Translations under genes and position numbers: made by a program | Shown here: positions 3,983-18,065 of the stretch, one piece after another | Position numbering within the stretch: position 1 is the first letter of the stretch | Layout: the number at the start of each line of letters is the position of its first letter | Notes under the pieces: generated by a model | The model's input: only the letters and a program-made list of their open reading frames with translations | Databases searched by the model: none | What the model was told of the DNA's origin: nothing | IMG/VR virus record: IMGVR_UViG_3300037851_000345 | Span: 188,067-222,974 of that record | Source of the DNA: a virus | Taxonomy: Duplodnaviria; Heunggongvirae; Uroviricota; Caudoviricetes | Direction: 5' to 3' (one strand) | Length of the DNA: 34,908 nt

Positions 3983-4358
3983 ATTCAAGAGAAGGTTGAA
4001 GCGGGAAGAGCGTAGGCATTTGCGAAAGGAGCAATCTAAATTACAACAAGAGGCCTTGGAATTAAAACGTCTACAGGACAAGTTTGATTTGTGGTGCAAG
4101 TTGAATCCGAAGAAGAGTACCAACAGGTGCGAGACGAGTTGCCCCCATTATAGAAGGATTGTGTACAGAAGGATTGGGCCTGGCGTCAAAGAAAGGATCA
4201 ACAAGTGCGATGCGAGTCACCCTCATTACAGAAGGATTGTGCTTGGCGTCCACGATTGTCCTAGGCCGTTTTTGCAGTTGGATTTGATGAATGGGAAGAT
4301 TTCGTTTTGCAATTGGGGAATACACATTAATTGCGTGGAGTGGATACGAAATGCCTAA
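3975..4358 (+). CDS. Small Cys-rich paralog-family protein with internal duplication
   Basis: KFDLWCKLN...CVEWIRNA. The segment C..SCPHYRRIV / C.ASHPHYRRIV occurs twice. Confidence 0.8.
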   Translation: MFKFKRRLKREERRHLRKEQSKLQQEALELKRLQDKFDLWCKLNPKKSTNRCETSCPHYRRIVYRRIGPGVKERINKCDASHPHYRRIVLGVHDCPRPFLQLDLMNGKISFCNWGIHINCVEWIRNA

Positions 4359-4665
4359 AAAGAACAACGAGTATTGGTTAGGTAAGATTAAGTTGTGGTT
4401 CGCCCTGCGCGGCGGGATAGGGACATGGTTACAACATCACCGAGAGGAAGAACTTTGCGAGAACTGCCGCTACTACCAATCAACTAAAAAGGTAAGGAGA
4501 TTGGAGACTCTAGTGTTGGGTGCGAACGGGTATCGCAATTTTGAATTTGTACGGGAGTGTAAGCGAAAGCAGGAGTTCAGGGGAAAGTTGATGGTGAGTT
4601 CTAATTTAAAGACAATCGAATTTTGCGACTCCTATCCGTTTCACTACATCTGTGCAGAAATGTAG
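4351..4665 (+). CDS. Small Cys-rich paralog-family protein
   Basis: ATG at 4351 overlaps the upstream stop. KIKLWFALR...CENCRYY, with a degenerate end ICAEM. Confidence 0.7.
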   Translation: MPKKNNEYWLGKIKLWFALRGGIGTWLQHHREEELCENCRYYQSTKKVRRLETLVLGANGYRNFEFVRECKRKQEFRGKLMVSSNLKTIEFCDSYPFHYICAEM

Positions 4666-4835
4666 CATCCTGTAAGCAAGCAAAGCAATACTACGATGAT
4701 TTATTGGAGTATGGGTATTATTACTTGGCATTCCTTCGGGAAGGGAATTACATAAAATAAACAGAAAGGGGTGTGGGTGTAATGGAAATAATGACGGGTA
4801 GATGGCCTTGCAAAGAATGGGTGAAATATGTTTAG
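4623..4835 (+). pseudogene. Paralog copy interrupted by in-frame TAA at 4758
   Basis: LRLLSVSLHLCRNVASC...YIK*TERG...WPCKEWVKYV*. It ends in the family motif with the usual 8-bp overlap onto ATG 4828. Confidence 0.55.
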
Positions 4836-5070
4836 CCGAAAGAAAGAAAAGCAAAAGTGGATAAACAAGTGGTTCTTGTGGCAAAAATTACACCCCGAAT
4901 TTGATATCAAAGAACATGGTTGTGGACAACGTGGTTGTAAACATTATAGCCCGAAGGGGTCCCACACGTGTCCTACGGGTTGTTTGATGTTGGATAAGAC
5001 GCTAAAGAAACTATTAGACCCTTGGGCAATAGAAGAATGTCATTGCATCGAATGGATTAAAAATGTTTAG
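4828..5070 (+). CDS. Small Cys-rich paralog-family protein
   Basis: NKWFLWQKLH...CHCIEWIKNV. Confidence 0.8.
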   Translation: MFSRKKEKQKWINKWFLWQKLHPEFDIKEHGCGQRGCKHYSPKGSHTCPTGCLMLDKTLKKLLDPWAIEECHCIEWIKNV

Positions 5071-5320
5071 TGATTCTATTTTAAACAAACTCAGGCTCTA
5101 TTTTAAACTGCATCCTGATTTTTGGCAGTTGTGGCAAGATGGAAATTTTGACTGTTGTTACAATTGTAAACACATCAAGAGCAGAGGCCGAGGATTCGAT
5201 TATATCGGTTGTAAGAAAAAATATATGATGTTGGTAGATAGAGAATTAACAGAAATTTTCTTTGGAGCCCCTTGGGCATTTAAAAACTGTTGTTGTGTGG
5301 AATGGGTGAAGGATGTCTAA
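5063..5320 (+). CDS. Small Cys-rich paralog-family protein
   Basis: NKLRLYFKLH...CYNCKH...CCCVEWVKDV. Confidence 0.8.
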   Translation: MFSDSILNKLRLYFKLHPDFWQLWQDGNFDCCYNCKHIKSRGRGFDYIGCKKKYMMLVDRELTEIFFGAPWAFKNCCCVEWVKDV

Positions 5321-5614
5321 AGAAGAACTGAGAAAATACCACAACAAGTATTTGTTGTGGCATAAACTGCATCCTAAGCAGGGGTTTGAACGCTGTCGGT
5401 TTTGTAAACACAGTCGTTCATATTATCAGATAGGGAGAAAGGAATTAATGTCTGCTTATTATATTGCCGCCATCATTCTGAAGAAAGACCGCATTGTAGA
5501 GCAGATAAACAGGCATTGAGAGTTAAACCTGATTTAAGTAAAATATATGGGCGAAATGATTTTGAATATTACTACCGTGGTACGTGGTGTACAGAGTGGA
5601 TAAAAGATGTCTGA
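5313..5614 (+). pseudogene. Frameshifted paralog-family member
   Basis: The N-half (NKYLLWHKLH...CRFCKH) is in the frame of 5313. The C-half (...NVCLLYC...HC...WCTEWIKDV*) is in the frame open 5408-5614. Confidence 0.7.
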
Positions 5615-5867
5615 GCAAGAATTGAAGAAGTGGTACAATAAATGGAAATTGTGGTCTGTACTTAACCACGATTGGAACAACAATACTCCGTATTGTTTCC
5701 TTTGTCAACACGTTGACCCCACAGATGGAACGAATACAAATTGCCCTCAGAAAGTACTTACCTTAAATTGGGATGACGCAGGTGAAGAATGGGTGAAAGA
5801 GTGTAATGTGAATCATACTTGGGATGGGTCGGGATATATGTGCCTAGAATGGATAAAAGATGTTTAA
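5607..5867 (+). CDS. Small Cys-rich paralog-family protein
   Basis: NKWKLWSVLN...CFLCQH...CLEWIKDV. Confidence 0.8.
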   Translation: MSEQELKKWYNKWKLWSVLNHDWNNNTPYCFLCQHVDPTDGTNTNCPQKVLTLNWDDAGEEWVKECNVNHTWDGSGYMCLEWIKDV

Positions 5868-9436: not shown

Positions 9437-9895
9437 ATGAATAAAATAGACAAAATTCACATTTCGATTATGTCGGCTGAAGTATTTAGACAGGTCAGCA
9501 GGGAATATCCTTATGACCACATCGTAATCAGGTACAAGACCCCTAGGGTCAACTACCAGCCAACTGTCCTTTCAAAATTCTGCCGTGGGCAGGTTGAATT
9601 GTTCGTCCACGACTACACGTCGAAGGAATCGATGGGGAACCCGCAGATTATTCTGTTTAGCAAGAACCACGCTAAGAAAATCCTGAGCCTACTTGAAAGG
9701 GAAAAGGATAATGTGTATCACATTATTTGCGTTTGCGACGCTGGTATCAGCCGCAGTTCGGCTACTGCTGCCGCAATCGGGAAAATCCTGTACAACGATG
9801 ATACGTTCGTATTCTACAATCCCCGTTACGTCCCCAATTTACATGTCTACAGCACCATTCTCAGGACGTATTTTGAGGGCAAAAATGGCGTTTAA
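9437..9895 (+). CDS. Protein-tyrosine/dual-specificity phosphatase-like protein (CX5R)
   Basis: Active-site loop IICVCDAGISRSSATA, upstream acid-loop candidate HD, C-terminal PN..VY..L. Confidence 0.8.
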   Translation: MNKIDKIHISIMSAEVFRQVSREYPYDHIVIRYKTPRVNYQPTVLSKFCRGQVELFVHDYTSKESMGNPQIILFSKNHAKKILSLLEREKDNVYHIICVCDAGISRSSATAAAIGKILYNDDTFVFYNPRYVPNLHVYSTILRTYFEGKNGV

Positions 9896-9909
9896 ATGCC
9901 TTTAAATCG

Positions 9910-10230
9910 ATGATACCCATTATAGAGGGCTACGAGCCGAAAAACAAGAGATTGATCCGCCTAGGGCGCAAGGCAAGGCTCCAGATAGTGTTAAATGGGG
10001 CAATCTCACGTCAGATGCTAAGTGAAATCAAAGATGCCGTCAGTTGTAGGAATTGTAAGTATTACAGTAGTGAAGGATTGGTAATAAGTAGATCAGTGTT
10101 GTCCTGTAGAAAAATCGGGGTAAAAACTAAAAAATACATGATGATGATGAATTCGATGACAAAAAACGGTCAGTTCTCCGTCGGCCTACAGATTGCCTAT
10201 TGTGTGCAGTTTAAAGAAAGAAAGGATTGA
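9910..10230 (+). CDS. Small Cys-rich paralog-family protein (divergent)
   Basis: RKARLQIVLN...CRNCKYY...CVQFK. Confidence 0.7.
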   Translation: MIPIIEGYEPKNKRLIRLGRKARLQIVLNGAISRQMLSEIKDAVSCRNCKYYSSEGLVISRSVLSCRKIGVKTKKYMMMMNSMTKNGQFSVGLQIAYCVQFKERKD

Positions 10231-10264
10231 AATTAATATATCCATTTTCAACCTCTACTATTGT

Positions 10265-11248
10265 TTATTGTTTTAGTAAAGTTTGAAAATCGTTTTTGAA
10301 GGTTTTATAGCCAAACCTTTTTGTTATCTCTTTTGAAATAAATTGTGAGATGGGGGTATAATCTTCTTCATCTTTTGCTATAAGGGTAAGATTTTCAATC
10401 AAAGTTTTAATGTTGTTGGTTACGTAGCACATATTACTAGCCCATTCAATCCAACTAGGGTTAAAATCTTTTCCCGAATCATCATTTAGAACAATAGGGA
10501 TAGTTCCGCACATGATGGCCTGTTGAAGCATCATGCAAAAAGTTTCGGAGCCGTGATGCGGGAAAATGATATATTTGTATTGGTTCAGAACCTTTCCAAC
10601 TTCTGCTTGTGGTATTTTTTCTTTCTTTTCCAAATTCTGTGAAGCGGCCAAAGCAAATGCCATGCGATATTTAGATGTAGTGAATTTTTCTAACACTTCA
10701 CCATATATATCAATTTGGGTAGGAATATAATGTGCTAAATTTAAAAAATCGAGATGAACTTTCAAAGGATAAATCCCGCCTATTATGCAAAAAAGATTAG
10801 GTCTAGCCTTCCAAGGTATTTCATTATGAAATATTTTAGGGTCAGAGGGACAGAACTTTAGATTTTCTTTCTGTAATATTTTATTTTGACTAGCATCTAA
10901 GGTATAAATAATGTCTGTTAATCTGAGTAAGTCCATTAATAAAACGTGTTGATTATCAGGTTCATTGGGGGTGATGAAATATTTTTGAGAATGAGAAAAT
11001 AGAATTACTTTAGTATTTGGAAATGCTAATTTATAAAATAGAACGGGAGAAATAATTCTAGAAAAAATCTCGTTTATTACAATAATATCGGGATGTTCTT
11101 CCAATAAACGAGACATTGTTGAGCCTTCTTTTGTTTGGTCTTTATATTCAACCAATTCCACAGGTAGTTCCTGTATCCATTTTTTGATGGTGTCCCCAAC
11201 TGCTTCTATTCCTGAACCGACATTAAGATTAATTAAAAAAACTTTCAT
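10265..11248 (-). CDS. GT-B fold glycosyltransferase (GT4-like)
   Basis: N-terminal K(V)FLI...GSG.E, HPDIIVINE, ILFSH; C-terminal YKYIIFP...ETFCMMLQQAIMCGTIPIV is an E-x7-E-type motif with Gln at the second position. Confidence 0.75.
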   Translation of the reverse strand: MKVFLINLNVGSGIEAVGDTIKKWIQELPVELVEYKDQTKEGSTMSRLLEEHPDIIVINEIFSRIISPVLFYKLAFPNTKVILFSHSQKYFITPNEPDNQHVLLMDLLRLTDIIYTLDASQNKILQKENLKFCPSDPKIFHNEIPWKARPNLFCIIGGIYPLKVHLDFLNLAHYIPTQIDIYGEVLEKFTTSKYRMAFALAASQNLEKKEKIPQAEVGKVLNQYKYIIFPHHGSETFCMMLQQAIMCGTIPIVLNDDSGKDFNPSWIEWASNMCYVTNNIKTLIENLTLIAKDEEDYTPISQFISKEITKRFGYKTFKNDFQTLLKQ

Positions 11249-11282
11249 ATTCGAATCCTTTTTATATTTTTATATCAAGTTA

Positions 11283-11798
11283 TTAAGTAACCGCTGGACA
11301 ATATACGTTATTAACTTCAGTATTATTATTTATATTTTCAAGAGCGTCATCACCAGGATAATGAGAACTGTTATTAATCCATTGAATTGTTATATTATGT
11401 TCTGCTAAATAAGAAGACTCTATTGCATTTTGATGAGTTGCATTATAAGTCGCATCATAACCTACATCGTGATTGTTATAATTTTGGTCATAGTGAGATG
11501 AAAGGTCGCCTGTATAATTTGTTACTTTATAAACAGAATTATGTAATGCTTTTTCTGCTGAGTCATTTGTGGCTTGATAAGTGGTATAATGAGTTGCATT
11601 GTAAGTCCCATTATGTCCTGAATCATCTGCTGAATAATGGGTTGCCCTAACAGTTGAATTATGACTTAGACAAGCCAAATTATCTTTTATCCAATCTACA
11701 TTTGTTTTAAACTCATTAATATCAACTGCTTCAACAATACCACCTGTAGCAATTGTTTCCGTCCAATCCTTACAACCACCTACTTTATTATAGCTCAT
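11283..11798 (-). CDS. His/Asn/Thr-rich tetrapeptide-repeat protein A (candidate radical SAM substrate)
   Basis: Leader-like W..TI..G..VEA...NEFK..VD, then C-x-x-H. All 10 His are in one 4-residue register. Confidence 0.8.
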   Translation of the reverse strand: MSYNKVGGCKDWTETIATGGIVEAVDINEFKTNVDWIKDNLACLSHNSTVRATHYSADDSGHNGTYNATHYTTYQATNDSAEKALHNSVYKVTNYTGDLSSHYDQNYNNHDVGYDATYNATHQNAIESSYLAEHNITIQWINNSSHYPGDDALENINNNTEVNNVYCPAVT

Positions 11799-11807
11799 AT
11801 TATTAAC

Positions 11808-12425
11808 CTAAGCGTCAAGTAAATCTACTGTTTGAACTGATACATTGTGAGAAGTTTGAACTGTCCCATTATCACCAGTATCAAGAGTACTATTGTTGCT
11901 ACTCTGATTAGTATTATCATGGGTTATAAAATAAGCGTCTTGGTGTCCATTATTATTTGAGGTATAATAAGTAATATTATGGGTTCCATGTAAGTCGGTA
12001 TCATGTGATGTATTATTGGTCGCATTATCTGTCGTATTGTGAGAATTTTGAACTGTGGCTTCATGGCTTGCTCTATTTGTTTCCAAATGACTTCCTAAAA
12101 CAGTTTGATTATCTATTTCTCGATAAGTAGTATAATGAGTTACCCGATATGTTATATCGTGAGTTGCTTCAACTGATGTTTCGTGAGTAGTCCGATGAGC
12201 AGAGCAAATATTTGCATCCCATGCTTGGTCTAAAGCGGTTTTTAATTCGGTATATTCAGTTGCCTCAATTTTCGTACCTATATTAATAGTTTTCACCCAT
12301 GAATAATTAGCAAGAGAAACATAACCTCTATCTGTATTAACATTTGCACGTATTTCGGCAATCCTTGCCGCTGTTGGTACATCTATTCCAGCAGTAACGG
12401 GCATTGTTGTCCAAGTGAAACCCAT
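11808..12425 (-). CDS. His/Asn/Thr-rich tetrapeptide-repeat protein B (candidate radical SAM substrate)
   Basis: Two copies of the leader-like motif, then C-x-x-H. 12 of 13 His are in one 4-residue register. AAGGAG RBS. Confidence 0.8.
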   Translation of the reverse strand: MGFTWTTMPVTAGIDVPTAARIAEIRANVNTDRGYVSLANYSWVKTINIGTKIEATEYTELKTALDQAWDANICSAHRTTHETSVEATHDITYRVTHYTTYREIDNQTVLGSHLETNRASHEATVQNSHNTTDNATNNTSHDTDLHGTHNITYYTSNNNGHQDAYFITHDNTNQSSNNSTLDTGDNGTVQTSHNVSVQTVDLLDA

Positions 12426-12443
12426 ATCAAGACTCCTTTATAC

Positions 12444-12450
12444 TATTTAT
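12444..12450 (-). promoter_or_regulatory. Candidate late-promoter motif ATAAATA
   Basis: One of six [A/C]TAAATA sites just upstream of minus-strand starts; overlaps a TAA stop. Confidence 0.35.
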
Positions 12451-12935
12451 TGATTTTGTTTATCAAAAGAAGCCAAATAATGTTTCGAAAGTTGCGTTGG
12501 TTGAAATCCTACGTGGCTTAATTCTTTGATAGTTTTTGATACCATTCTTAGATTTTGAAGTAATTCTACAGTAGTCAAGCGCAAATTCACAAAACGATTA
12601 AGTGTTTGTGTTAACAAACTGAAATCTTCATTTTTATGGATATTATTATTCCAATTATAGATTAGTGTGGAATAAGATTCTATAAATTTTGAACCTTCTT
12701 CAGAAATAACCTGCTCATTCAAAACCGCCAAAAGATATTTCAGACTATCCATAATCAAATTAATACCTGTCGGGGTTAAAGGCGATGGTACTTCATTTTT
12801 TTCACAAACAGAAGCGTCACGTTCAACCATTCCTATTATTTGTACAAATGACTCTTTTCTTTTCCCAAGAAGATAAGTGGCATCTGTATTCCCCAAATAA
12901 CACCTTAACTGTTTAACAAATTCATTCAATCCCAT
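12447..12935 (-). CDS. Helical hypothetical protein, radical SAM operon accessory
   Basis: 162 aa, Leu/Ile-rich amphipathic pattern; start overlaps the radical SAM stop. Confidence 0.65.
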   Translation of the reverse strand: MGLNEFVKQLRCYLGNTDATYLLGKRKESFVQIIGMVERDASVCEKNEVPSPLTPTGINLIMDSLKYLLAVLNEQVISEEGSKFIESYSTLIYNWNNNIHKNEDFSLLTQTLNRFVNLRLTTVELLQNLRMVSKTIKELSHVGFQPTQLSKHYLASFDKQNQ

Positions 12936-14266
12936 TTTATTTCCTCCATGACTCTCAAAACTTTGTTTATTTTATCTTTATTTACTGCACCCAAAATTAT
13001 ATCTAGCATCTCGCTTTCCTGAAAACCATCAAGGATGCCTTTTATTCTGTAAAATTCCATACGGCAAGCCGAAGGAATTGGTACAAACACATCGCCTGTA
13101 TTTTCAAATTGCGCCCCTAAACAACCATGGCTACACATTGAATTTATGACGCATTGTTCACACATTGGGAAATTATCCCCATCACTAGCATTGGTCGCTA
13201 TATGTAATTCGGGACTTATCGCTTCTATATCAACAATCTTATCATCTTTGGTTAGGAACTTAAACATCTTAAAATAATCATACATCAAACGATGACAAGG
13301 GAATGCAGTTAAATCCCCCATTCGTAAATAGATACCTGATTGTAATGAGCATCCTAACCCCCTGCCTGTCGTTGAAAATGGGCTTGATAGAGTATTAAAA
13401 GCCCAATGATTATGAAATAATTGATGAATAGGATTATCCATTTTTTTCAAACGTTCTCCTACCCAACTTGCTAATTTACGCATAAATTCATAAAGATGTT
13501 TTGATTGCTCTTCTGTCCATTCAGCATTTCGTACTTCAAGCAAATAAAGACTAGTGGGTGGGAATCCATATTCTTTAAATTTCTCTTGAAACCACATAAA
13601 ATTATCCCACCATTTTTCGATGTTGTTTGAGTAAATCATCGGATGGAAGCCTATTCTATATTTCTTATTAAACTTAAAAAGTTTATCGTAGAATACTTTA
13701 TCCCGTACTCTATCACTACGAAACGACCTGTTATCTTCCATAAAAATTCCATCAACAGATGCACTTATAATTAACGGGCAGTCTATCTTTTTTCCCCTTT
13801 CTATAAAATCTTCAACAAGTCTAGTTCTATTTTCGCTGAATAAGAAATTCATATTTGTTGGCACTACAATCTCTGTATAAATAGGTTGTCCCATTTCGGC
13901 TCTTTTGAGGGCTTCATCAACAATATCAAATCCTACATTTTGATTGAAGGCATCACCCCCGAATAATTCTAGTTTTGGCCGCATCTGGTTTTCCCACAAC
14001 CAATCCATTACAATATTTGCATTTTTAAATACCGTGGCAGGATTTTTCAATTCAGGCTTGGGATAATATTTATCACCAAATTTAACAACATAACAATAGG
14101 AACATTTTAATTCACAAGCGTCAGAAAGGTCAAATTCAAACCCCCGATAGTTGTTTAAGGCATATCCTTTATCTGTTTTAGCCTTCTTCCAATTTCTCCA
14201 AGAATTGAAAAAGGTGCGGTCTAAAAAGTTTTTTAAAAGTTCATTATTTTGCTCTTGAAAATTCAT
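12926..14266 (-). CDS. Radical SAM/SPASM-domain protein
   Basis: CELKCSYC, LFGGDA, PTN, ISASVDG; SPASM C-x17-CH...C-x2-C-x5-C-x3-C-x18-C. Confidence 0.92.
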   Translation of the reverse strand: MNFQEQNNELLKNFLDRTFFNSWRNWKKAKTDKGYALNNYRGFEFDLSDACELKCSYCYVVKFGDKYYPKPELKNPATVFKNANIVMDWLWENQMRPKLELFGGDAFNQNVGFDIVDEALKRAEMGQPIYTEIVVPTNMNFLFSENRTRLVEDFIERGKKIDCPLIISASVDGIFMEDNRSFRSDRVRDKVFYDKLFKFNKKYRIGFHPMIYSNNIEKWWDNFMWFQEKFKEYGFPPTSLYLLEVRNAEWTEEQSKHLYEFMRKLASWVGERLKKMDNPIHQLFHNHWAFNTLSSPFSTTGRGLGCSLQSGIYLRMGDLTAFPCHRLMYDYFKMFKFLTKDDKIVDIEAISPELHIATNASDGDNFPMCEQCVINSMCSHGCLGAQFENTGDVFVPIPSACRMEFYRIKGILDGFQESEMLDIILGAVNKDKINKVLRVMEEIKWD

Positions 14267-15626
14267 ATCTTGCTTCCTCTAAAATGATTTGAAATGCGCC
14301 GTTGCCAAACAATCTGAATAATGAAACAGGAGTGGTGAACAAACTTCCTGTTTGTAAAATATTTTCCATAGGACAACCTAAAGCATAGTTAATGAATATA
14401 GAGAACAAAGTGGCGAGGTTTTCATCTGCAAAATCTTCACTTATCTGTTTACTATATACTAATTCTTTGATAAGTGCTAAGGTTGTGGCCGTTTTATGTT
14501 TGGAAAAGGTTTGAAAACAAGACCAAGTATAAAATACCCTATCGACTTCCAATTGGTTATTGATATCTACGATATGCTTTTCCTTTACCAATTTTATTCT
14601 GTCTTTTTGCTGTAAATGGAAATCCCAATTCCCCTCATTTCTTAATTCTTTTTCATATTCAGGATGATTCATAAAAAGTGAACGATGACATAAATGAAGG
14701 TCTTGGAGTTCTCCTAATTGGTTTTGCGAGCGTCCTGCCGAACAGGAAAACATATCAGGCTTTGAAAAAAATTCCCTGCTGAAATCAAACAACCGTATCA
14801 ACCTGTAAGTATATGCATTGAATAAAGAGTTTTGGTGCTTTAAAAAGGGCCGTTGTCTTTGTTCATCAGACAAACGCTTTAAATGCCAACAGGTTTTTGC
14901 CCATATCTTGCCATCTTCTGAACTATATGTGCCAGGAACAGACATTGATGGAATCCCATTTAAGTCTAGATGAATATTTTTTTGCTTGTTAATTCCTTTT
15001 GCTAGGTCTATCCACTCATCAAAGAAATAAAAATAATAACGATATCTAGATTCCTCTCCATTAAGCCAATTTAGATTTTCAATTGACCAAGTTGATTTAA
15101 AATGAAACTTGACTTTTTTCTTCCCCAATTCTTCATTCTGAAGCAAACGTAAAACCTTTAAAAAATTACTTTTAATTGTTATTGTGGCACTACCTTGGCG
15201 GTTTTTATCTGTTACTTCTGGTGGGCCATCAATTGAGATTTGAACTTTGACTGAAATATCTCTATCTTTTGGCAAAGCCTGAATAAATTTAATTACACTT
15301 AAAGGATTGACCATCAAATTTGTTGAAAAACTAAATTCCCTTAATTTTGGGAAAGTATCTAATATTTTTGGAAGTATAGGGATTATCAAATCTAAAGTCA
15401 GAAGTGGTTCCGTACCCCAAAAAGCCAAACATTCAAGTTGGCCTCCATAAAGAGATTGTAATTCTTTGACATACTCCCCTGTCTGAATTTTCTTGATGAT
15501 ATCTTGGTGGAGTTTTTTCAAATGATCATTCTTCTCAATATAACAATAGGAACAATTCAAATTACAATAACCCGATGTAAAAATTTCTCCCGCTACTGCC
15601 TGTTGGCTTTTTAAAATCTTATCCAT
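14244..15626 (-). CDS. Radical SAM protein with reduced SPASM/Twitch-like domain
   Basis: CNLNCSYC, FWGTEPLL, STN, QISIDG; C-terminal CSAG...LCH...GCP lacks the C-x2-C-x5-C block. Confidence 0.88.
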   Translation of the reverse strand: MDKILKSQQAVAGEIFTSGYCNLNCSYCYIEKNDHLKKLHQDIIKKIQTGEYVKELQSLYGGQLECLAFWGTEPLLTLDLIIPILPKILDTFPKLREFSFSTNLMVNPLSVIKFIQALPKDRDISVKVQISIDGPPEVTDKNRQGSATITIKSNFLKVLRLLQNEELGKKKVKFHFKSTWSIENLNWLNGEESRYRYYFYFFDEWIDLAKGINKQKNIHLDLNGIPSMSVPGTYSSEDGKIWAKTCWHLKRLSDEQRQRPFLKHQNSLFNAYTYRLIRLFDFSREFFSKPDMFSCSAGRSQNQLGELQDLHLCHRSLFMNHPEYEKELRNEGNWDFHLQQKDRIKLVKEKHIVDINNQLEVDRVFYTWSCFQTFSKHKTATTLALIKELVYSKQISEDFADENLATLFSIFINYALGCPMENILQTGSLFTTPVSLFRLFGNGAFQIILEEARYEFSRAK

Positions 15627-15660
15627 TATTCTTCCTTTTTAGTCCTCATCTTTATATTGA

Positions 15661-15667
15661 TATTTAT
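15661..15667 (-). promoter_or_regulatory. Candidate late-promoter motif ATAAATA upstream of the radical SAM operon
   Basis: 34 nt upstream of the ATG at 15626; not part of a stop codon. Confidence 0.4.
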
Positions 15668-15681
15668 TCTTTCTTAGATTC

Positions 15682-15705
15682 TCTTCAGCCCATAAAGGCT
15701 GAAGA
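15682..15705. other. Perfect 9-bp inverted repeat upstream of the radical SAM operon
   Basis: TCTTCAGCC-CATAAA-GGCTGAAGA, with no U-tract on either strand. Confidence 0.6.
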
Positions 15706-15772
15706 TTGGTATAATGATTGGCTTTCAAAAATTCCTCTCTATCTTGAAGATTAAAGAAATCTAAGTGTTTTA

Positions 15773-17155
15773 CTACTTATCTTTACAATATTTGTCAATT
15801 TTTCCAAAAATACATTTGATAAAGTTTGAAATTCCAAACAGTTTGTCGTTCCAGTTTATATAGTAAAAACAGGAACATTTCTGTTCGGGTGGAATAGGAC
15901 AAGTATTACCTGTTTCTTTCCATTTTCCATTTTCACAGGTTGCTGTGATGATAACCGAACCATCATAACAAGTTTCAGTCTTGACTTCACCGATTTGACA
16001 TTCAGGCTTTACGTAGGGAACAGTCCATTTTCCCTTGTTTGCTAATGGCCCAATGTACTGTTCGTATGGAACTGCCATGGCCTCAAAGATTTTGAGTTGT
16101 TCTTCTTTGCAATCATCCCAAGGCTCATCATCAGGAAGATGTTCAATACCCATAATTGGCATTTCAATTCCGTTCCAAACTTTTGTAAGAGCTTCAGTTC
16201 CATGATAGGTACAGATACGAGTTACCATCTGTGTCCATTGGTCAACGCCTGGCCGGGGTGTAGCACCACCCATGCAGCCATCATCACTCACTTGCCAACG
16301 GATAGGATGAACAGCCCAATAATCCATAGCCTGTTCAAACACATTTACGCCTTGATTGTTTTCACAACCACAACAACCGTGGGTCGGACGAATAATACTC
16401 GTATCCCATCTATCTGCAGGGTCTTGTCTTAATGGATGCCACATAAACAAATTGTAGTCATAAATATAACTTGGAAGTTTCTTAAAAAGGTCATTACCAT
16501 TTGAGGGGATATCAGGACAAATTGCCCAAGCGTGCGGCCAAATTTTTTGCTGGTCCATTGTCTCCAAAATAAAATAACAAAAATCAAGACTTTCTGCCGT
16601 CATTTCATTACCCATTCCAAAAACAATTTTTAAACCCTTTTCCTTTGCTAGTTTGAACCACTCCAACATATATGCTAATGCATACTGACGATTTTCAATA
16701 TCATAAAGGTTCTTTATTCCCTGTACATTGTTACGCCAAGGGGAAAATTGTTGGTCATGACTATCATTGGTATATTGATAGAAAAGGTCTATCCAAAGAG
16801 AAATACCTGGGGCAGTATTTCCTGCTTTTTGTGAAGGATAATTCATAATACGAATCATCTGTTCTGCAATTTCCCAATATTTATTATTGCGTTTTGTTAA
16901 GTCAAACACACCCTCAGAAACTTGAACAAATGGGGTGAGGTTAGTTTTGTACCCATTAGAGTCAGACCAATTAGGCCAAACGCTCCATCCTAACCAACGG
17001 AACATATTAACACCACGATTTGCCATATCCATACAATAATTATACCATCGTTCTTCATTTAAAACCCAAGTTTGTTTCTCTTCATCCCACACACTCATTG
17101 TGGGGTCCATTAATGAAAACATTGAACTTGATATAAAATACATTTTATCTGTCAT
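15773..17155 (-). CDS. Probable clan GH-A-like TIM-barrel glycoside hydrolase with Cys-rich C-terminal module
   Basis: GVNMFRW, FDLTK.N..YW, LWIDLF, SPW.NNVQG, GMGNE (NE acid/base-like), C-terminal C..GE.K...C.DGS.I...C..GKW..T...CP. AGGAGG RBS. Confidence 0.55.
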   Translation of the reverse strand: MTDKMYFISSSMFSLMDPTMSVWDEEKQTWVLNEERWYNYCMDMANRGVNMFRWLGWSVWPNWSDSNGYKTNLTPFVQVSEGVFDLTKRNNKYWEIAEQMIRIMNYPSQKAGNTAPGISLWIDLFYQYTNDSHDQQFSPWRNNVQGIKNLYDIENRQYALAYMLEWFKLAKEKGLKIVFGMGNEMTAESLDFCYFILETMDQQKIWPHAWAICPDIPSNGNDLFKKLPSYIYDYNLFMWHPLRQDPADRWDTSIIRPTHGCCGCENNQGVNVFEQAMDYWAVHPIRWQVSDDGCMGGATPRPGVDQWTQMVTRICTYHGTEALTKVWNGIEMPIMGIEHLPDDEPWDDCKEEQLKIFEAMAVPYEQYIGPLANKGKWTVPYVKPECQIGEVKTETCYDGSVIITATCENGKWKETGNTCPIPPEQKCSCFYYINWNDKLFGISNFIKCIFGKIDKYCKDK

Positions 17156-17183
17156 TTTTATCCTCCTAACGATTATCCATATA

Positions 17184-17190
17184 TATTTAG
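17184..17190 (-). promoter_or_regulatory. Candidate late-promoter motif CTAAATA
   Basis: Intergenic, upstream of the AGGAGG RBS of the GH-like gene. Confidence 0.4.
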
Positions 17191-17213
17191 TGAATTTATC
17201 GTTTTAGATGAAA

Positions 17214-18065
17214 TTACGCTGTACGTTTCCATATATAAACAACAAAGTAAGGTGGAATATTATCCCCATTTCCTGAATCAAATTCGGCAATATCTGTAGT
17301 ATGGGTGTGATTATCAATAGGAATAACACTATCACTACCACCTGCTGCCCAATAACCCTGTGAACTTGGACCACCTGATGCTGTAGCAGGTGGGTCAACT
17401 TTATGTGTGTGTCCCGAAGCACCACCTGTTGCCTCAACGGTTCCAAATAATCCATCCCCTGACTTATATCCAACAAGAAATTGTCCTTGGGCAATTTGAG
17501 ACCAAGTACCAAATCCTAAAAGTGTATTAGGATTCGTAGAAACAACTGAAAGAAATACAGAACCTATAGGCCACGCACTATCAAGACTTGGAGTAGTGCC
17601 TGAGTAACCCGATACTCCTGAGTAACCCGATATCCCTGAGTAACCCGAATAGCCCGAATATGAAATCCAATTCGACCCATCATACCAATATGGAATATTA
17701 GTATCAGAATTAAAATACATTTGTCCTTCAACCGCACCCACTGGATTAGAAGTAAAAACAGGAAGAACAAATAATCCACCATCTGATAAGTTAACATTAT
17801 ATGTAACACCCGACACGTTCATGTTAAATGTGTCGCCGTCAACACCAAGCGTTATTGTGTTAGTGCCTTGACCTGAAATGATGGATGATTCTTCAAAAAC
17901 TAAATTTGCGGCAGAACCAACATCCCCAATTAAAACATCACCACTAGAACATCCAACAACAAGCGTTCCGCTTGCATCAACATAAATTGTGCAGAGATAG
18001 GTGTTGGATGCTGAATAAATATCTAATGTCTGACCATCAAGAATTTGTATTGGTGTTCTTGCCAT
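17214..18065 (-). CDS. Tail fibre protein with SGY repeat and T4 gp10-like C-terminal domain
   Basis: P...EGQMYFN...YDG..W, SG-X repeat, WPIGSVFLSV..TNP..LLGFGTW...GQFLVG...HTH...PPYFVVYIWKRTA. Confidence 0.8.
   Translation of the reverse strand: MARTPIQILDGQTLDIYSASNTYLCTIYVDASGTLVVGCSSGDVLIGDVGSAANLVFEESSIISGQGTNTITLGVDGDTFNMNVSGVTYNVNLSDGGLFVLPVFTSNPVGAVEGQMYFNSDTNIPYWYDGSNWISYSGYSGYSGISGYSGVSGYSGTTPSLDSAWPIGSVFLSVVSTNPNTLLGFGTWSQIAQGQFLVGYKSGDGLFGTVEATGGASGHTHKVDPPATASGGPSSQGYWAAGGSDSVIPIDNHTHTTDIAEFDSGNGDNIPPYFVVYIWKRTA

Follow-up and report, generated by a model that had tools for sequence, protein, structure and literature searches.

A conserved phage tail-module cassette of two radical SAM enzymes, a helical accessory protein and period-4 repeat proteins: a candidate RiPP-like protein-maturation system

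A six-gene cassette in a 223-kb uncultivated phage, located where the tail-fibre genes end, encodes two radical SAM enzymes (rSAM-A and rSAM-B), an accessory protein (acc), two paralogous repeat proteins (RepA and RepB) and a glycosyltransferase (GT). About 37 distinct loci share the core Rep-Rep-rSAM-A-rSAM-B-acc, with identities of 28-91% and a variable gene order. What we observed is which genes are present, how well they are conserved, their sequence features and the class of the enzymes. We put at about even the chance that the cassette matures proteins in a RiPP-like manner and that these end up as fibre or adhesin proteins, tail-associated or extracytoplasmic. We found no description of a protein-maturation system of this type in the literature searched.

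The cassette and its upstream neighbours lie as follows in the window (the whole 34,908-nucleotide stretch of DNA analysed).

10265-15626, minus strand: six-gene cassette, from the list of open reading frames
10265-11248, minus strand: GT-B/GT4-like glycosyltransferase (327 aa), an optional tailoring gene
11283-11798, minus strand: RepB, a RepA paralogue (171 aa) with one N-terminal unit, a junction Cys and a RepA-type period-4 repeat
11670-11672, minus strand: junction Cys43 of RepB
11808-12425, minus strand: RepA repeat protein (205 aa) with an N-domain, a junction Cys and a period-4 repeat
12204-12206, minus strand: junction Cys74 of RepA
12447-12935, minus strand: acc, all-helical accessory protein (162 aa) outside known families
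12926-14266, minus strand: rSAM-B, radical SAM/SPASM enzyme (446 aa) with CELKCSYC and a full seven-Cys SPASM domain
14244-15626, minus strand: rSAM-A, radical SAM enzyme (460 aa) with CNLNCSYC and a twitch-like C-terminal domain (one auxiliary cluster)
15773..17155, minus strand: 460-aa protein of unassigned family, directly upstream of the cassette and kept solely in the window's clade
17214..18065, minus strand: baseplate/tail-fibre protein with a Gp10_C domain (Pfam, 3.1e-20; also tail PHROGs) and SGY repeats

The rSAM-A and rSAM-B genes overlap by 23 nt and the rSAM-B and acc genes by 10 nt, and the acc/RepA, RepA/RepB and RepB/GT gaps are 21, 9 and 34 nt, in agreement with the original prediction of six packed or overlapping minus-strand genes. 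That prediction was also correct in placing them at the distal end of the tail-fibre cluster, because the upstream minus-strand genes comprise the Gp10_C baseplate gene and, farther upstream, tail-fibre PHROGs. The intervening 460-aa protein had no family match in Pfam, NCBIfam or PHROGs. As had likewise been stated, there was no peptidase or ABC exporter within or beside the cluster, and we found no protease or exporter in any cassette locus examined.

The two genes with CxxxCxYC motifs (CNLNCSYC at residues 21-28 of rSAM-A, CELKCSYC at residues 51-58 of rSAM-B) both match Radical_SAM and RiPP-maturase models, as expected from the original prediction. Pfam matches of rSAM-A were to Radical_SAM (3.5e-6) and Fer4_12 (2.5e-5), and in an alignment of 22 relatives C21, C25, C28, C295 and C313 were invariant and C418 near-invariant. 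Its N-terminal region matched the NCBIfam models PapB, YhhB, GrrM and HxsB, each far under cut-off, and its PDB sequence matches were ChlB (5.3e-13, the best solved structure), CteB, anSME and SkfB. In rSAM-B, which has 372 homologues at E<=1e-10, C306, C324, C369, C372, C378, C382 and C401 were invariant among 21 relatives and fit the SPASM motif (SPASM domain, 3.4e-4); the protein matched the PapB model over its full length (1.8e-14; 53.7 bits against a cut-off of 340) and CteB in the PDB (1.4e-15). The family searches that had been proposed as a check thus returned, as best family and PDB matches for both enzymes, peptide or protein maturases (PapB, YhhB, CteB, ChlB, QhpD and anSME, with GrrM and the SCIFF maturase CteB also among the NCBIfam matches) and not cofactor or nucleotide enzymes. 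All scores against characterised maturase families were 5-10 times under the cut-offs, and the cassette reached none of the defining family models of the HXS, CXXX-repeat, triceptide and PapB systems.

The accessory protein, kept beside rSAM-B in about 33 loci, had no match in Pfam, NCBIfam, PHROGs, PADLOC or the PDB and only two unnamed relatives in AFDB; its AF2 model consists of six helices (pLDDT 88.7). Its identification as HxsD was rejected, an hhalign comparison with an HxsD-type protein giving a probability of 0.1%. For the predicted GT-B enzyme the evidence was weaker, but the assignment stands: the score against Pfam Glycos_transf_1 (PF00534) was 1.4e-5 and 25.1 bits, slightly under the gathering cut-off of 26.4; the protein matched phrog_2170 (glycosyltransferase); and its family profile matched GT4/GT-B structures (WbaZ-1 at 1e-5). 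The first Glu of its EX7E motif is invariant and the second is Gln in the window's clade. Its membership in the cassette is optional, with a GT gene in about 13 of the 37 loci, but in one of these (L047) a GT domain annotated PF00534/PF13692 is fused to rSAM-A.

RepA and RepB do share an N-terminal motif, as had been noticed: both have an N-terminal unit followed by a D-x-N-x-x-C-x-x-H junction. The RepA N-domain spans residues 1-73 and comprises two helix units, and the period-4 [T/S]-[H/Y] repeat then extends to the C-terminus. His falls in one four-residue register in 12 of 13 cases in RepA and in all 10 in RepB, which none of 20,000 shuffles matched (p<5e-5). W5, E24, D66 and C74 were invariant in 24 relatives, and the predicted RepA structure had a pLDDT of 81-94 in the N-domain and <50 in the repeat. 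In the window Rep proteins we found no signal peptide, transmembrane segment, membrane anchor or peptidoglycan-binding domain, and no Pfam or beta-helix match. Constant across the family are a folded N-terminal domain (MxFxW plus helices), a near-invariant junction Cys, followed in many relatives by Asp, Asn or His at +3/+4, and an acidic period-4 repeat. The proteins as a whole are acidic (pI 5.1 for RepA and 4.8 for RepB; family median 4.2, with 45 of 47 below pI 7). The period of 4 holds across clades, cores reach 100-430 residues, and Rep proteins carry 20-80 repeats. The label "HXXX-repeat" in the original prediction, however, is not supported for the family, His being frequent only in some clades and replaced elsewhere in that register by Tyr, Asp, Asn or Val. 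Asp-rich relatives, among them that of locus L011, have few aromatic residues. Because the register residue differs between clades, one chemistry along the whole repeat is doubtful, and modification may be restricted to the junction.

Most cassette loci are phage contigs, in which the cassette lies close to the distal end of the tail module or right at it. The upstream flanks in other phages are dominated by PHROGs for tape-measure, tail and tail-fibre proteins, and packaging or replication genes make up most of the downstream flanks. Genes of a tail-fibre-like family precede Rep by 1-14 nt in six loci and occur within a few kb in four more, and in L049 the order is TMP-...-Rep-Rep-rSAM-A-rSAM-B-acc-...-1211-aa DUF2341. 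A 960-aa protein that contains DUF5000/F5_F8-type galactose-binding domains ends in a RepA module, and RepB, rSAM-A, rSAM-B and acc come immediately after it; an 815-aa open reading frame in L024 ends in a Rep-like tail; and the Asp-rich RepA relative of L011 passes the Pfam cut-offs for Gp5_trimer_C and DUF2345 (VgrG/T4 gp5 beta-helix repeats). Four loci are bacterial contigs of the type of CPR, a group of tiny-celled bacteria. Three of these adjoin tatC-tatA, with the cassette directly after tatC-tatA and a small protein carrying an RR(K/N)FLK signal, and in one Rep of CPR origin a membrane anchor at the N-terminus replaces the MxFxW domain. The cassette is present in cells as well as phages and has been exchanged between them. 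A tblastn search of an isolate phage genome collection with rSAM-B returned no relative, so cultured phages in that collection apparently lack it.

The proposed RiPP-like logic is supported by the linkage of the radical SAM pair, acc and repeat proteins, which persists at identities as low as 28% across the roughly 37 loci, and by the maturase-type best matches; because the genes travel together and those matches are maturases, neither line of evidence turned against it. CPR-like bacterial chromosomes also carry the cassette, beside tatCA, so it is not restricted to phages. A role as virion appendage is plausible and no more, although tail-module position, fusions to carbohydrate-binding fibre-like proteins and the one gp5/VgrG beta-helix match speak for it. 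The distal end of the tail module is a classic site of cargo ("moron") genes and the genes downstream are mostly for packaging or replication, so a structural role does not follow from the location by itself.

We propose that RepA and RepB, very probably the substrates, would be synthesised as full-length proteins. Their N-terminal domain (MxFxW together with one or two helix units) would have a recognition or attachment role. The acidic repeat would be intrinsically unstructured; in its strict four-residue register a small residue (T/S/G) is followed by H/Y/V/D/N and a variable pair. The CxxxCxxC motifs of the enzymes start at residues 21 and 51, too near the N-terminus for a fused RRE domain, and rSAM-A and rSAM-B would therefore work jointly with the helical acc, installing radical-mediated modifications at the junction and in the repeat region. 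Intramolecular side-chain cross-links would be the likeliest chemistry, a reading that could go either way; they might be of the cyclophane type, spanning the three residues of [H/Y]-x-x units, or a thioether from the junction Cys, or both. Where present, the GT-B enzyme would probably add sugar to the Ser/Thr-rich repeat. Because no protease or exporter is involved, the product would remain a protein. In phages it would most likely form part of a fibre, needle or adhesin associated with the tail, and in CPR bacteria it would most likely be a surface protein exported by Tat. Overall, we consider the odds balanced that the product is a virion or extracytoplasmic structural protein.

Rep proteins could instead be ordinary trimeric beta-helical or metal-binding needle or fibre proteins that require no covalent modification, their His/Asp/Tyr ladder binding Fe or Ca; the precedents for such a ladder are the gp37 tip and the gp5 needle of T4. 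The radical SAM pair would then have a different target, for example a small molecule or some other tail protein, or would serve only as an assembly factor. The L011 match fits this, as do the good metal ligands (His, Asp, Asn and Tyr) along one face of a period-4 strand and a repeat composition that drifts freely among clades, as expected of a scaffold more than of an enzyme substrate. We nevertheless consider it improbable, since it leaves unexplained both the linkage of the enzymes and acc with Rep in cells and phages and the strong conservation of the N-domain and junction Cys, and both enzymes group among peptide or protein maturases. Far less probable still is a classical RiPP, in which the N-domain would be a cleaved leader and the repeat a secreted bioactive peptide (a bacteriocin or signal). 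A conserved leader-like N-terminus, a variable core and RiPP-type enzymes would suit it, but the loci lack a protease or exporter, the cores are long, the module is fused to 815-960-aa proteins, and the N-domain is predicted to be a folded 70-residue domain.

The main rival, which we regard as unlikely, is a phage-borne analogue of HXS (HxsABCD, His-Xaa-Ser), an anti-phage system (Li et al., Nat Commun 2026, PMC13128918), in which the radical SAM pair and small partner would mature a repeat effector that exits the cytoplasm and stops competing phages from delivering their genomes (superinfection exclusion); a CPR bacterium would carry it as an ordinary defence system. In HXS the small partner binds one of the two radical SAM enzymes and the effector is modified on S-H-x-x-S (PMC13128918). 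The architectures are alike: a pair of radical SAM enzymes is combined with a small non-enzymatic partner and a His-repeat effector that stays a protein after modification, and neither operon includes a dedicated protease or ABC exporter. The modified pentad S-H-R-S-S has the spacing of the window's [S/T]-H-x-x-[S/T], and the cargo-gene position, the exchange between cells and phages and the Tat linkage in CPR loci would also fit. By sequence, however, the cassette proteins fall outside the Hxs families (HxsB, 33 bits against a cut-off of 370; no match to HxsC, HxsD or HxsA), as the acc comparison above also indicates, and PADLOC gave only weak generic radical SAM matches (viperin, pVip) for the enzyme pair and none for the remaining four proteins. 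HxsA is basic, carries a signal peptide and a domain that binds peptidoglycan, and acts through basic, DNA-binding repeats (five, of period 3), whereas the window Rep proteins are acidic, lack both the signal peptide and such a domain, and have an MxFxW helical N-domain, a junction Cys, two paralogues and many more, period-4 repeats. HXS is 99.7% in Pseudomonadota and mostly chromosomal (PMC13128918), and the window-type cassette occurs chiefly in the tail modules of phages and in CPR genomes. The fusions to fibre-like proteins also fit a structural role better.

Other known systems resemble parts of the cassette. The triple-stranded beta-helix needle of T4 gp5 (C-terminal) and VgrG shares the L011 matches, a repeat period of 8 (2x4) and a tail-module context, but the window Rep proteins do not match it, and gp5 and VgrG require no radical SAM maturation. 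The CXXX-repeat system (TIGR04115 plus accessory protein) likewise combines a period-4 repeat substrate, a radical SAM maturase and an accessory protein, and the distant look-alikes that a language-model search gave for the Rep N-domain included a cluster of CXXX targets, partly viral (a lead only); the Rep register residue is, however, His, Tyr or Asp, not Cys, Rep has no Pfam match, and TIGR04115 scored 30 bits against a cut-off of 350. Among thioether-forming SPASM maturases, PapB (CX3D ranthipeptide), CteB (SCIFF) and QhpD are the best full-length NCBIfam and PDB matches of rSAM-B, and Rep proteins have the one near-invariant Cys, with Asp, Asn or His at +3/+4 in many relatives. QhpD provides a precedent for radical SAM cross-linking of a protein subunit (QhpC), not a secreted peptide. 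The rSAM-B score is far under the PapB cut-off, no quinohemoprotein partners are present and, because there is a single conserved Cys, there would be at most one thioether per Rep. Triceptide synthases (ChlB, HaaB, HtkB, XyeB and GrrM/OscB) are radical SAM/SPASM-type maturases acting on repeated aromatic-X-X motifs, including those with His and Tyr; the motifs include HAA, HTK and YDR, the last native to ChlB (PMC11499958). The cassette enzymes score far under the triceptide family cut-offs and are two, with a separate helical partner; Rep proteins are 100-500 residues long with dozens of units, whereas triceptide substrates are short peptides, and the aromatic register residue is not kept in all clades. 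ChlB is nonetheless the best solved structure for rSAM-A, whose top NCBIfam matches include YhhB and GrrM, and an [H/Y]-x-x unit with a one-residue spacer gives a period of exactly 4.

The six minus-strand open reading frames (ORFs) that the original prediction had placed at 10265-15626 were all borne out, within those coordinates. The window forms the final 35 kb of a phage genome of 222,974 bp that is complete, with direct terminal repeats, according to IMG/VR, and the cassette within it is laid out as follows.

Genes of the cassette in the window
14244-15626, minus strand: rSAM-A, radical SAM enzyme, 460 aa, CNLNCSYC at residues 21-28
12926-14266, minus strand: rSAM-B, radical SAM enzyme, 446 aa, CELKCSYC at residues 51-58; overlaps rSAM-A by 23 nt
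12447-12935, minus strand: acc, accessory protein, 162 aa; overlaps rSAM-B by 10 nt
11808-12425, minus strand: RepA, repeat protein, 205 aa
11283-11798, minus strand: RepB, repeat protein, 171 aa
10265-11248, minus strand: GT, putative glycosyltransferase, 327 aa

The same strand carries, upstream of the cassette, genes for a protein of 460 aa, a baseplate protein (Gp10_C) and then a series of tail-fibre-type proteins; downstream of the cassette the coding strand switches. We found no peptidase or exporter gene in or beside the cassette, and a scan of window positions 9800-17400 for sigma-70 promoters and terminators gave no signal above that of shuffles. The 460-aa protein (15773-17155, minus strand), directly upstream of rSAM-A, is kept only in the clade of the window (relative loci L002-L004 and L006) and matches no family; it has a GMGNEM stretch resembling clan GH-A glycosidases and a Cys-rich C terminus and may be a tail-associated depolymerase. 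Just past GT on the opposite strand, a 152-aa ORF (9437-9895, plus strand) contains the sequence VCDAGISRS, a C-x5-R-S motif typical of Cys-based protein or dual-specificity phosphatases; L004 has a conserved counterpart of 147 aa. Three more radical-SAM-like ORFs of 410, 367 and 385 aa lie in the phage genome outside the window (G000:C1, near 74001-74180, 139047-139421 and 157350-157763).

Both enzymes have the CxxxCxxC motif and the Radical_SAM core (Pfam/NCBIfam) that define the superfamily, and the motif is invariant in 22 relatives of rSAM-A and 21 of rSAM-B. In a six-frame search of the genome rSAM-A scored above the Pfam cut-off; rSAM-B was weak in Pfam (15 bits), and its profile matched CteB, its nearest solved structure, at 1.4e-15. 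The SPASM signature, a C-terminal seven-Cys motif (CX9-15GX4C ... CX2CX5CX3C ... C) that holds two auxiliary clusters, is present in rSAM-B, where C306, C324, C369, C372, C378, C382 and C401 are invariant in 21 relatives and TIGR04085 matches at 3.4e-4. It is absent from rSAM-A, which would be a twitch-like enzyme with at most one auxiliary cluster, because only C295, C313 and C418 are conserved past its SAM cluster among 22 relatives. The similarity between the two enzymes is confined to the core. The nearest solved structure to rSAM-A is the triceptide synthase ChlB (5.3e-13, residues 13-160 only), whose native motif is Tyr-Asp-Arg (PMC11499958); CteB, anSME and SkfB come next.

The best NCBIfam matches of the pair are all peptide or protein maturases (PapB, YhhB, GrrM, geopeptide, Nif11, HxsB, QhpD, SCIFF and the CXXX-repeat family), with scores for both enzymes 5-10 times under the curated cut-offs, so that the two appear to constitute a new subfamily within the RiPP/protein-maturase branch. 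The original prediction had named cofactor- or nucleotide-modifying enzymes as the best matches that would count against it; we saw no sign of these, and the NCBIfam and structure matches alike point to maturases. PADLOC returned nothing beyond weak matches to the viperin (pVip) core. An N-terminal RRE domain is typical of RiPP maturases, and neither enzyme has space for one, the CxxxCxxC motif beginning at residue 21 in rSAM-A and residue 51 in rSAM-B. Two insertions were seen among the relatives. In L006 (2558-5008), rSAM-A has 816 aa and contains an intein (Pfam Intein_splicing, LAGLIDADG), and in the 91%-identical relatives L002 and L003 a ~1.6-kb insertion (4238-5845) between the 460-aa gene and rSAM-A holds a 56-aa ORF with a match to the rSAM-A profile (2e-22), which may be what is left of a duplicated copy or of a mobile insertion.

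rSAM-B alignments, used as queries against IMG/VR, retrieved 36 loci with identities of 28-91%, and an rSAM-B profile run against 5.8 billion proteins gave at least 372 homologues at E<=1e-10, nearly all unnamed. Neither the cassette region (megablast) nor rSAM-B (tblastn) had a match among INPHARED phages, so that the isolate genomes there appear to lack the cassette, and a scan of genome contigs with a three-sequence rSAM-B alignment found no relative. We annotated all ORFs of the loci by iterative HMM search, which left about 37 distinct loci once duplicates were removed. rSAM-A and rSAM-B co-occur in every one of these, acc is present in about 33 and GT in about 13. At least one Rep gene, and usually one A-type and one B-type, is found in all but a few loci, those being truncated or atypical, so the outcome that the original prediction would have found damaging, enzyme pairs occurring mostly without repeat proteins, did not materialize. 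The commonest gene order is Rep-Rep-rSAM-A-rSAM-B-acc, and that of the window is a clade variant.

RepA and RepB share a plan in which an N-domain opening with MxFxW is followed by a junction (D-x-N-x-x-C-x-x-H) and a period-4 repeat. The N-domain contains a helix unit, I-x-A-x-x-x-x-E-[IL]-[RK]-x-N-x-D, in two copies in RepA and one in RepB, and a strict 4-residue register starts at the junction Cys in both proteins. Register position 2 is Thr or Ser in 20 of the first 25 units of RepA and 13 of the first 25 of RepB, and position 3 is His, Tyr or Asn in 19 of 25 in each. The repeats had been described as His-periodic, which holds for the two proteins of the window (12/13 His residues of RepA and 10/10 of RepB fall in a single register, equalled in 0 of 20,000 shuffles) but not for the family as a whole, since in many relatives the register position is occupied by Tyr, Asp, Asn or Val. 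The Rep protein of L011, for example, has ~40 octads rich in Asp, Thr and Val. What the family keeps throughout is W5, E24, D66, the junction Cys and an acidic period-4 repeat: the pI is 5.1 for RepA and 4.8 for RepB, and across the family the median is 4.2, with 45 of 47 proteins below pI 7. Neither window protein has a hydrophobic segment.

AlphaFold modelled the Rep N-domain with a pLDDT of 81-94 and the repeat with one below 50, and the RepA N-domain model had no convincing fold match in BFVD or in a wide fold search (VIA, best Z 4.7). No match to the gp5C/VgrG beta-helix families Gp5_trimer_C and DUF2345 was found at E<=1 for RepA or RepB of the window; the RepA relative of L011 passes the Pfam thresholds for both (41.2 and 52.8 bits, respectively). 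We found no further gene with the Rep N-domain in the phage genome. A profile search with this domain returned 3,274 cluster representatives, mostly short Rep-like proteins, and tandem copies of its helix unit (~33 residues) are also found terminally in large extracellular-type proteins that contain BACON and cadherin-like domains. Four such homologues (P0241, P0193, P0259 and P0161) are large bacterial proteins of secreted type, whose repeats are BACON, cadherin-like or propeller-like, and they carry two or three tandem copies of this unit (W-T-D ... I-K-A-x-H-I-x-E-L-R) at their termini; in these four the unit, a widespread module, matched no Pfam family.

Several weak lines of evidence suggest that GT is a GT-B/GT4-like glycosyltransferase. 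It scored 25.1 bits against PF00534 (gathering score, 26.4), its profile matched GT4/GT-B structures at 1e-5 to 1e-3, and its EX7E motif has an invariant first Glu, the other Glu being replaced by Gln in the window clade and kept in 6 of 11 relatives. The GT homologue of L047, which is fused to rSAM-A, carries PF00534/PF13692. This natural fusion (L047 7488-9980) has 830 aa and lies on a CPR-like contig of 291 kb; in L048, GT is a separate gene behind acc. N-glycosylation at N-x-S/T sequons was considered as the role of GT and rejected, there being 12 and 10 sequons in the window Rep proteins and 1 and 1 in those of the GT-bearing locus L005; the density in the window is more likely a by-product of a composition rich in Asn, Ser and Thr. 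The accessory protein belongs to no family in Pfam, NCBIfam, PHROGs or PADLOC. Together with 19 relatives, it gave a confident six-helix fold (AlphaFold model, pLDDT 88.7), for which a fold search found no convincing PDB match, and the AlphaFold DB clusters contain just two relatives, both unnamed. A predicted complex of acc with RepA residues 1-92, run without controls, scored 0.03.

In phage contigs, the named upstream neighbours of the cassette are chiefly tape-measure, tail and tail-fibre families and the downstream neighbours are mostly packaging or replication genes; the cassette thus usually closes the tail module. The distal end of a tail module is also a favoured spot for cargo genes. 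A tail-fibre-like family with a common C-terminal domain is found near the cassette in ten loci, ending 1-14 nt ahead of the first cassette gene in six and lying within a few kilobases, on either side, in the other four. In L049 the order is tape measure, 480-aa protein, 68-aa protein, RepA, RepB, rSAM-A, rSAM-B, acc, 283-aa protein and a DUF2341 protein of 1211 aa. Furthermore, in L050 the RepA module forms the C terminus of a protein of 960 aa that has four galactose-binding domains (DUF5000/F5_F8-type) and is immediately followed by RepB, rSAM-A, rSAM-B and acc, and in L024, which has no separate Rep gene, a Rep-like junction and repeat make up the end of a downstream ORF of 815 aa. The L050 fusion, the L024 ORF and the beta-helix match of L011 suggest a more direct tie between Rep and fibre-like proteins.

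The cassettes of L021 and L027 (5467-11277) are fragmented under translation table 11 and complete once TGA is read as sense, whereas reading TAG as Gln fails to close the ORFs. These phage contigs, with 28% GC, use TGA for Trp, because the TGA codons sit on invariant Trp columns of rSAM-A and rSAM-B. The same observation rules out TGA as Gly (table 25), the code of SR1/Gracilibacteria, which would have linked these phages to such hosts. The cassette also appears fragmented in L025, L026 and L032.

The cassette is not confined to phages. Four long contigs (L044, L045, L047 and L048), assigned by NCBI names to Parcubacteria/Paceibacterota, carry it alongside housekeeping genes that include those for NusA, RNase Y, H+-PPase, pyruvate:ferredoxin oxidoreductase and type IV pili. 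In three of these CPR-like loci, tatC comes first, then tatA. Genes for a protein of 76-89 aa with a twin-arginine signal, RR(K/N)FLK, and for a zinc-ribbon protein of ~120 aa follow in that order, and after them Rep, Rep, rSAM-A, rSAM-B and acc, with or without GT.

Genes preceding the cassette in three CPR-like loci (tatC, tatA, twin-arginine protein and zinc-ribbon protein)
L045: 5278-7024
L047: 4614-6306
L048: 6101-7811

In the fourth, the MxFxW domain of Rep is replaced by a membrane anchor at the N terminus. The tatC-tatA block may be a module dedicated to Tat export or to anchoring. The Sec pathway cannot pass a cross-linked, folded protein, and together with the Tat linkage this gives a hint that the mature product might be folded or cross-linked before export and act outside the cytoplasm. 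The three Tat-linked cellular copies group as one clade in the rSAM-B tree, and the fourth is sister to phage copies (97/96 support), which suggests that the cassette moves between phages and CPR-like cells. A second module adjoins the cassette on the 539-kb contig of L044 (4718-8021); it consists of a Pfam HxsD (PF27806) match, an 82-aa ORF, a 479-aa rSAM/SPASM-like enzyme and a TPR protein.

Taken together, these results make the Rep proteins probable substrates of the enzymes. For the overall model, in which the cassette matures Rep into a structural or surface protein, we infer both chemistry and location, and we give it about an even chance of being right. The strongest rival is an entry-exclusion effector like that of the His-Xaa-Ser (HXS) system, which consists of two rSAM enzymes, HxsD and a His-repeat protein that blocks phage DNA entry from the periplasm and whose essential modification is a +8-Da change on S-H-R-S-S (PMC13128918). 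The architecture matches, as does the S-H-x-x-S spacing, but no Hxs family model accommodates the proteins: rSAM-A scored 33.4 bits against HxsB (TIGR03978; cut-off, 370), neither enzyme matched HxsC (TIGR03977) at E<=0.1, acc had no match to HxsD (hhalign probability of 0.1% against a PF27806-type protein) and HxsA (TIGR03979) is absent from the phage genome. Moreover, HxsA has a signal peptide, a peptidoglycan-binding domain and basic HxS repeats through which it binds DNA, whereas the window Rep proteins are acidic, with neither a hydrophobic N terminus, a signal peptide nor a peptidoglycan-binding domain, and we consider this rival unlikely. Less probable still is the reading that Rep is a beta-helical fibre that binds metal and goes unmodified, and that the rSAM pair works on something else, as this leaves the tight genetic linkage of the pair to Rep unexplained. 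A secreted RiPP peptide is so improbable that we reject it, given that the cores run to hundreds of residues, that Rep modules are also fused to large proteins and that a protease or exporter is lacking.

Under the Rep-maturation model, acc would stand in for the absent RRE and would either present the substrate or partner an enzyme, the role that HxsD has for HxsC, and rSAM-A and rSAM-B would act one after the other on the junction and the period-4 repeat. One candidate reaction is the formation of aryl-to-C-beta cyclophane rings on [H/Y]-x-x units, each followed by a one-residue Thr/Ser spacer, an arrangement that would reproduce the period of 4. A second candidate is a thioether from the single junction Cys, the best matches of rSAM-B presumably all being thioether-forming enzymes; epimerization would be less likely. 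Precedents for the cyclophanes are HAA, HTK and YDR (PMC11499958). GT, if present, would decorate the Ser/Thr-rich repeat, and the product would stay a protein, located on the surface of CPR cells and, in phages, serving as a fibre, needle or adhesin associated with the tail.

A bolder and more doubtful proposal is that phages and episymbiotic CPR bacteria build attachment fibres with an enzymatically "stapled" protein shaft. Dozens of rSAM side-chain cross-links at strict 4-residue spacing, with optional glycosylation, would make a rigid rod, proof against proteases, or a metal-binding needle out of a disordered acidic repeat. If true, a virion structural protein would for the first time be seen to undergo post-translational maturation by radical SAM enzymes, and its class, that of protein-sized poly-cyclophane or poly-cross-linked RiPPs, would be new. 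A conserved two-enzyme system reserved for large repeat proteins in phage tail modules would bring a new kind of virion or host-interaction chemistry, would offer enzymologists a natural substrate in which 20-80 target units are repeated and would link uncultivated anaerobic phages and CPR bacteria via a common, exchanged cassette. The enzyme homologues number at least 372 and the cluster representatives of the N-domain over 3,000, nearly all of them unnamed and unstudied.

Among the known systems, the triceptide (3-CyFE) maturases, whose hallmark is an aryl-to-C-beta cross-link with a loss of 2 Da per ring, do not include the pair. No membership in XyeB, GrrM, FxsB, YhhB or AmcB was found, and the scores, which concern the N-terminal core only, were 41.9 bits for YhhB (cut-off, 445) and 36.5 for GrrM (cut-off, 310). 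On the substrate side, where these systems have aromatic-X-X motifs, His and Tyr hold one register of 4 in the window Rep proteins, with Val, Asp or Asn there in other clades. The CXXX-repeat system (TIGR04115, 30.4 bits; cut-off, 350) and the PapB-type ranthipeptide system (53.7 and 44.4 bits; cut-off, 340) do not fit either, each Rep having a single conserved Cys where the former calls for Cys at each fourth target residue and the latter for repeated CX3D motifs; a C-x-x-x-D at the junction occurs in some relatives, not in the window proteins. A literature search (CXXX-repeat, phage RiPP, SPASM with tail) returned no description of the cassette. Small secreted peptides and one enzyme subunit (QhpC) are known targets of radical SAM maturases, and radical SAM maturation of one defence effector, HxsA, has been known since 2026 (PMC13128918). 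The maturation of repeat substrates by radical SAM enzymes is therefore known already; new here are the enzyme pair, the helper fold, the substrate family and the biological setting.
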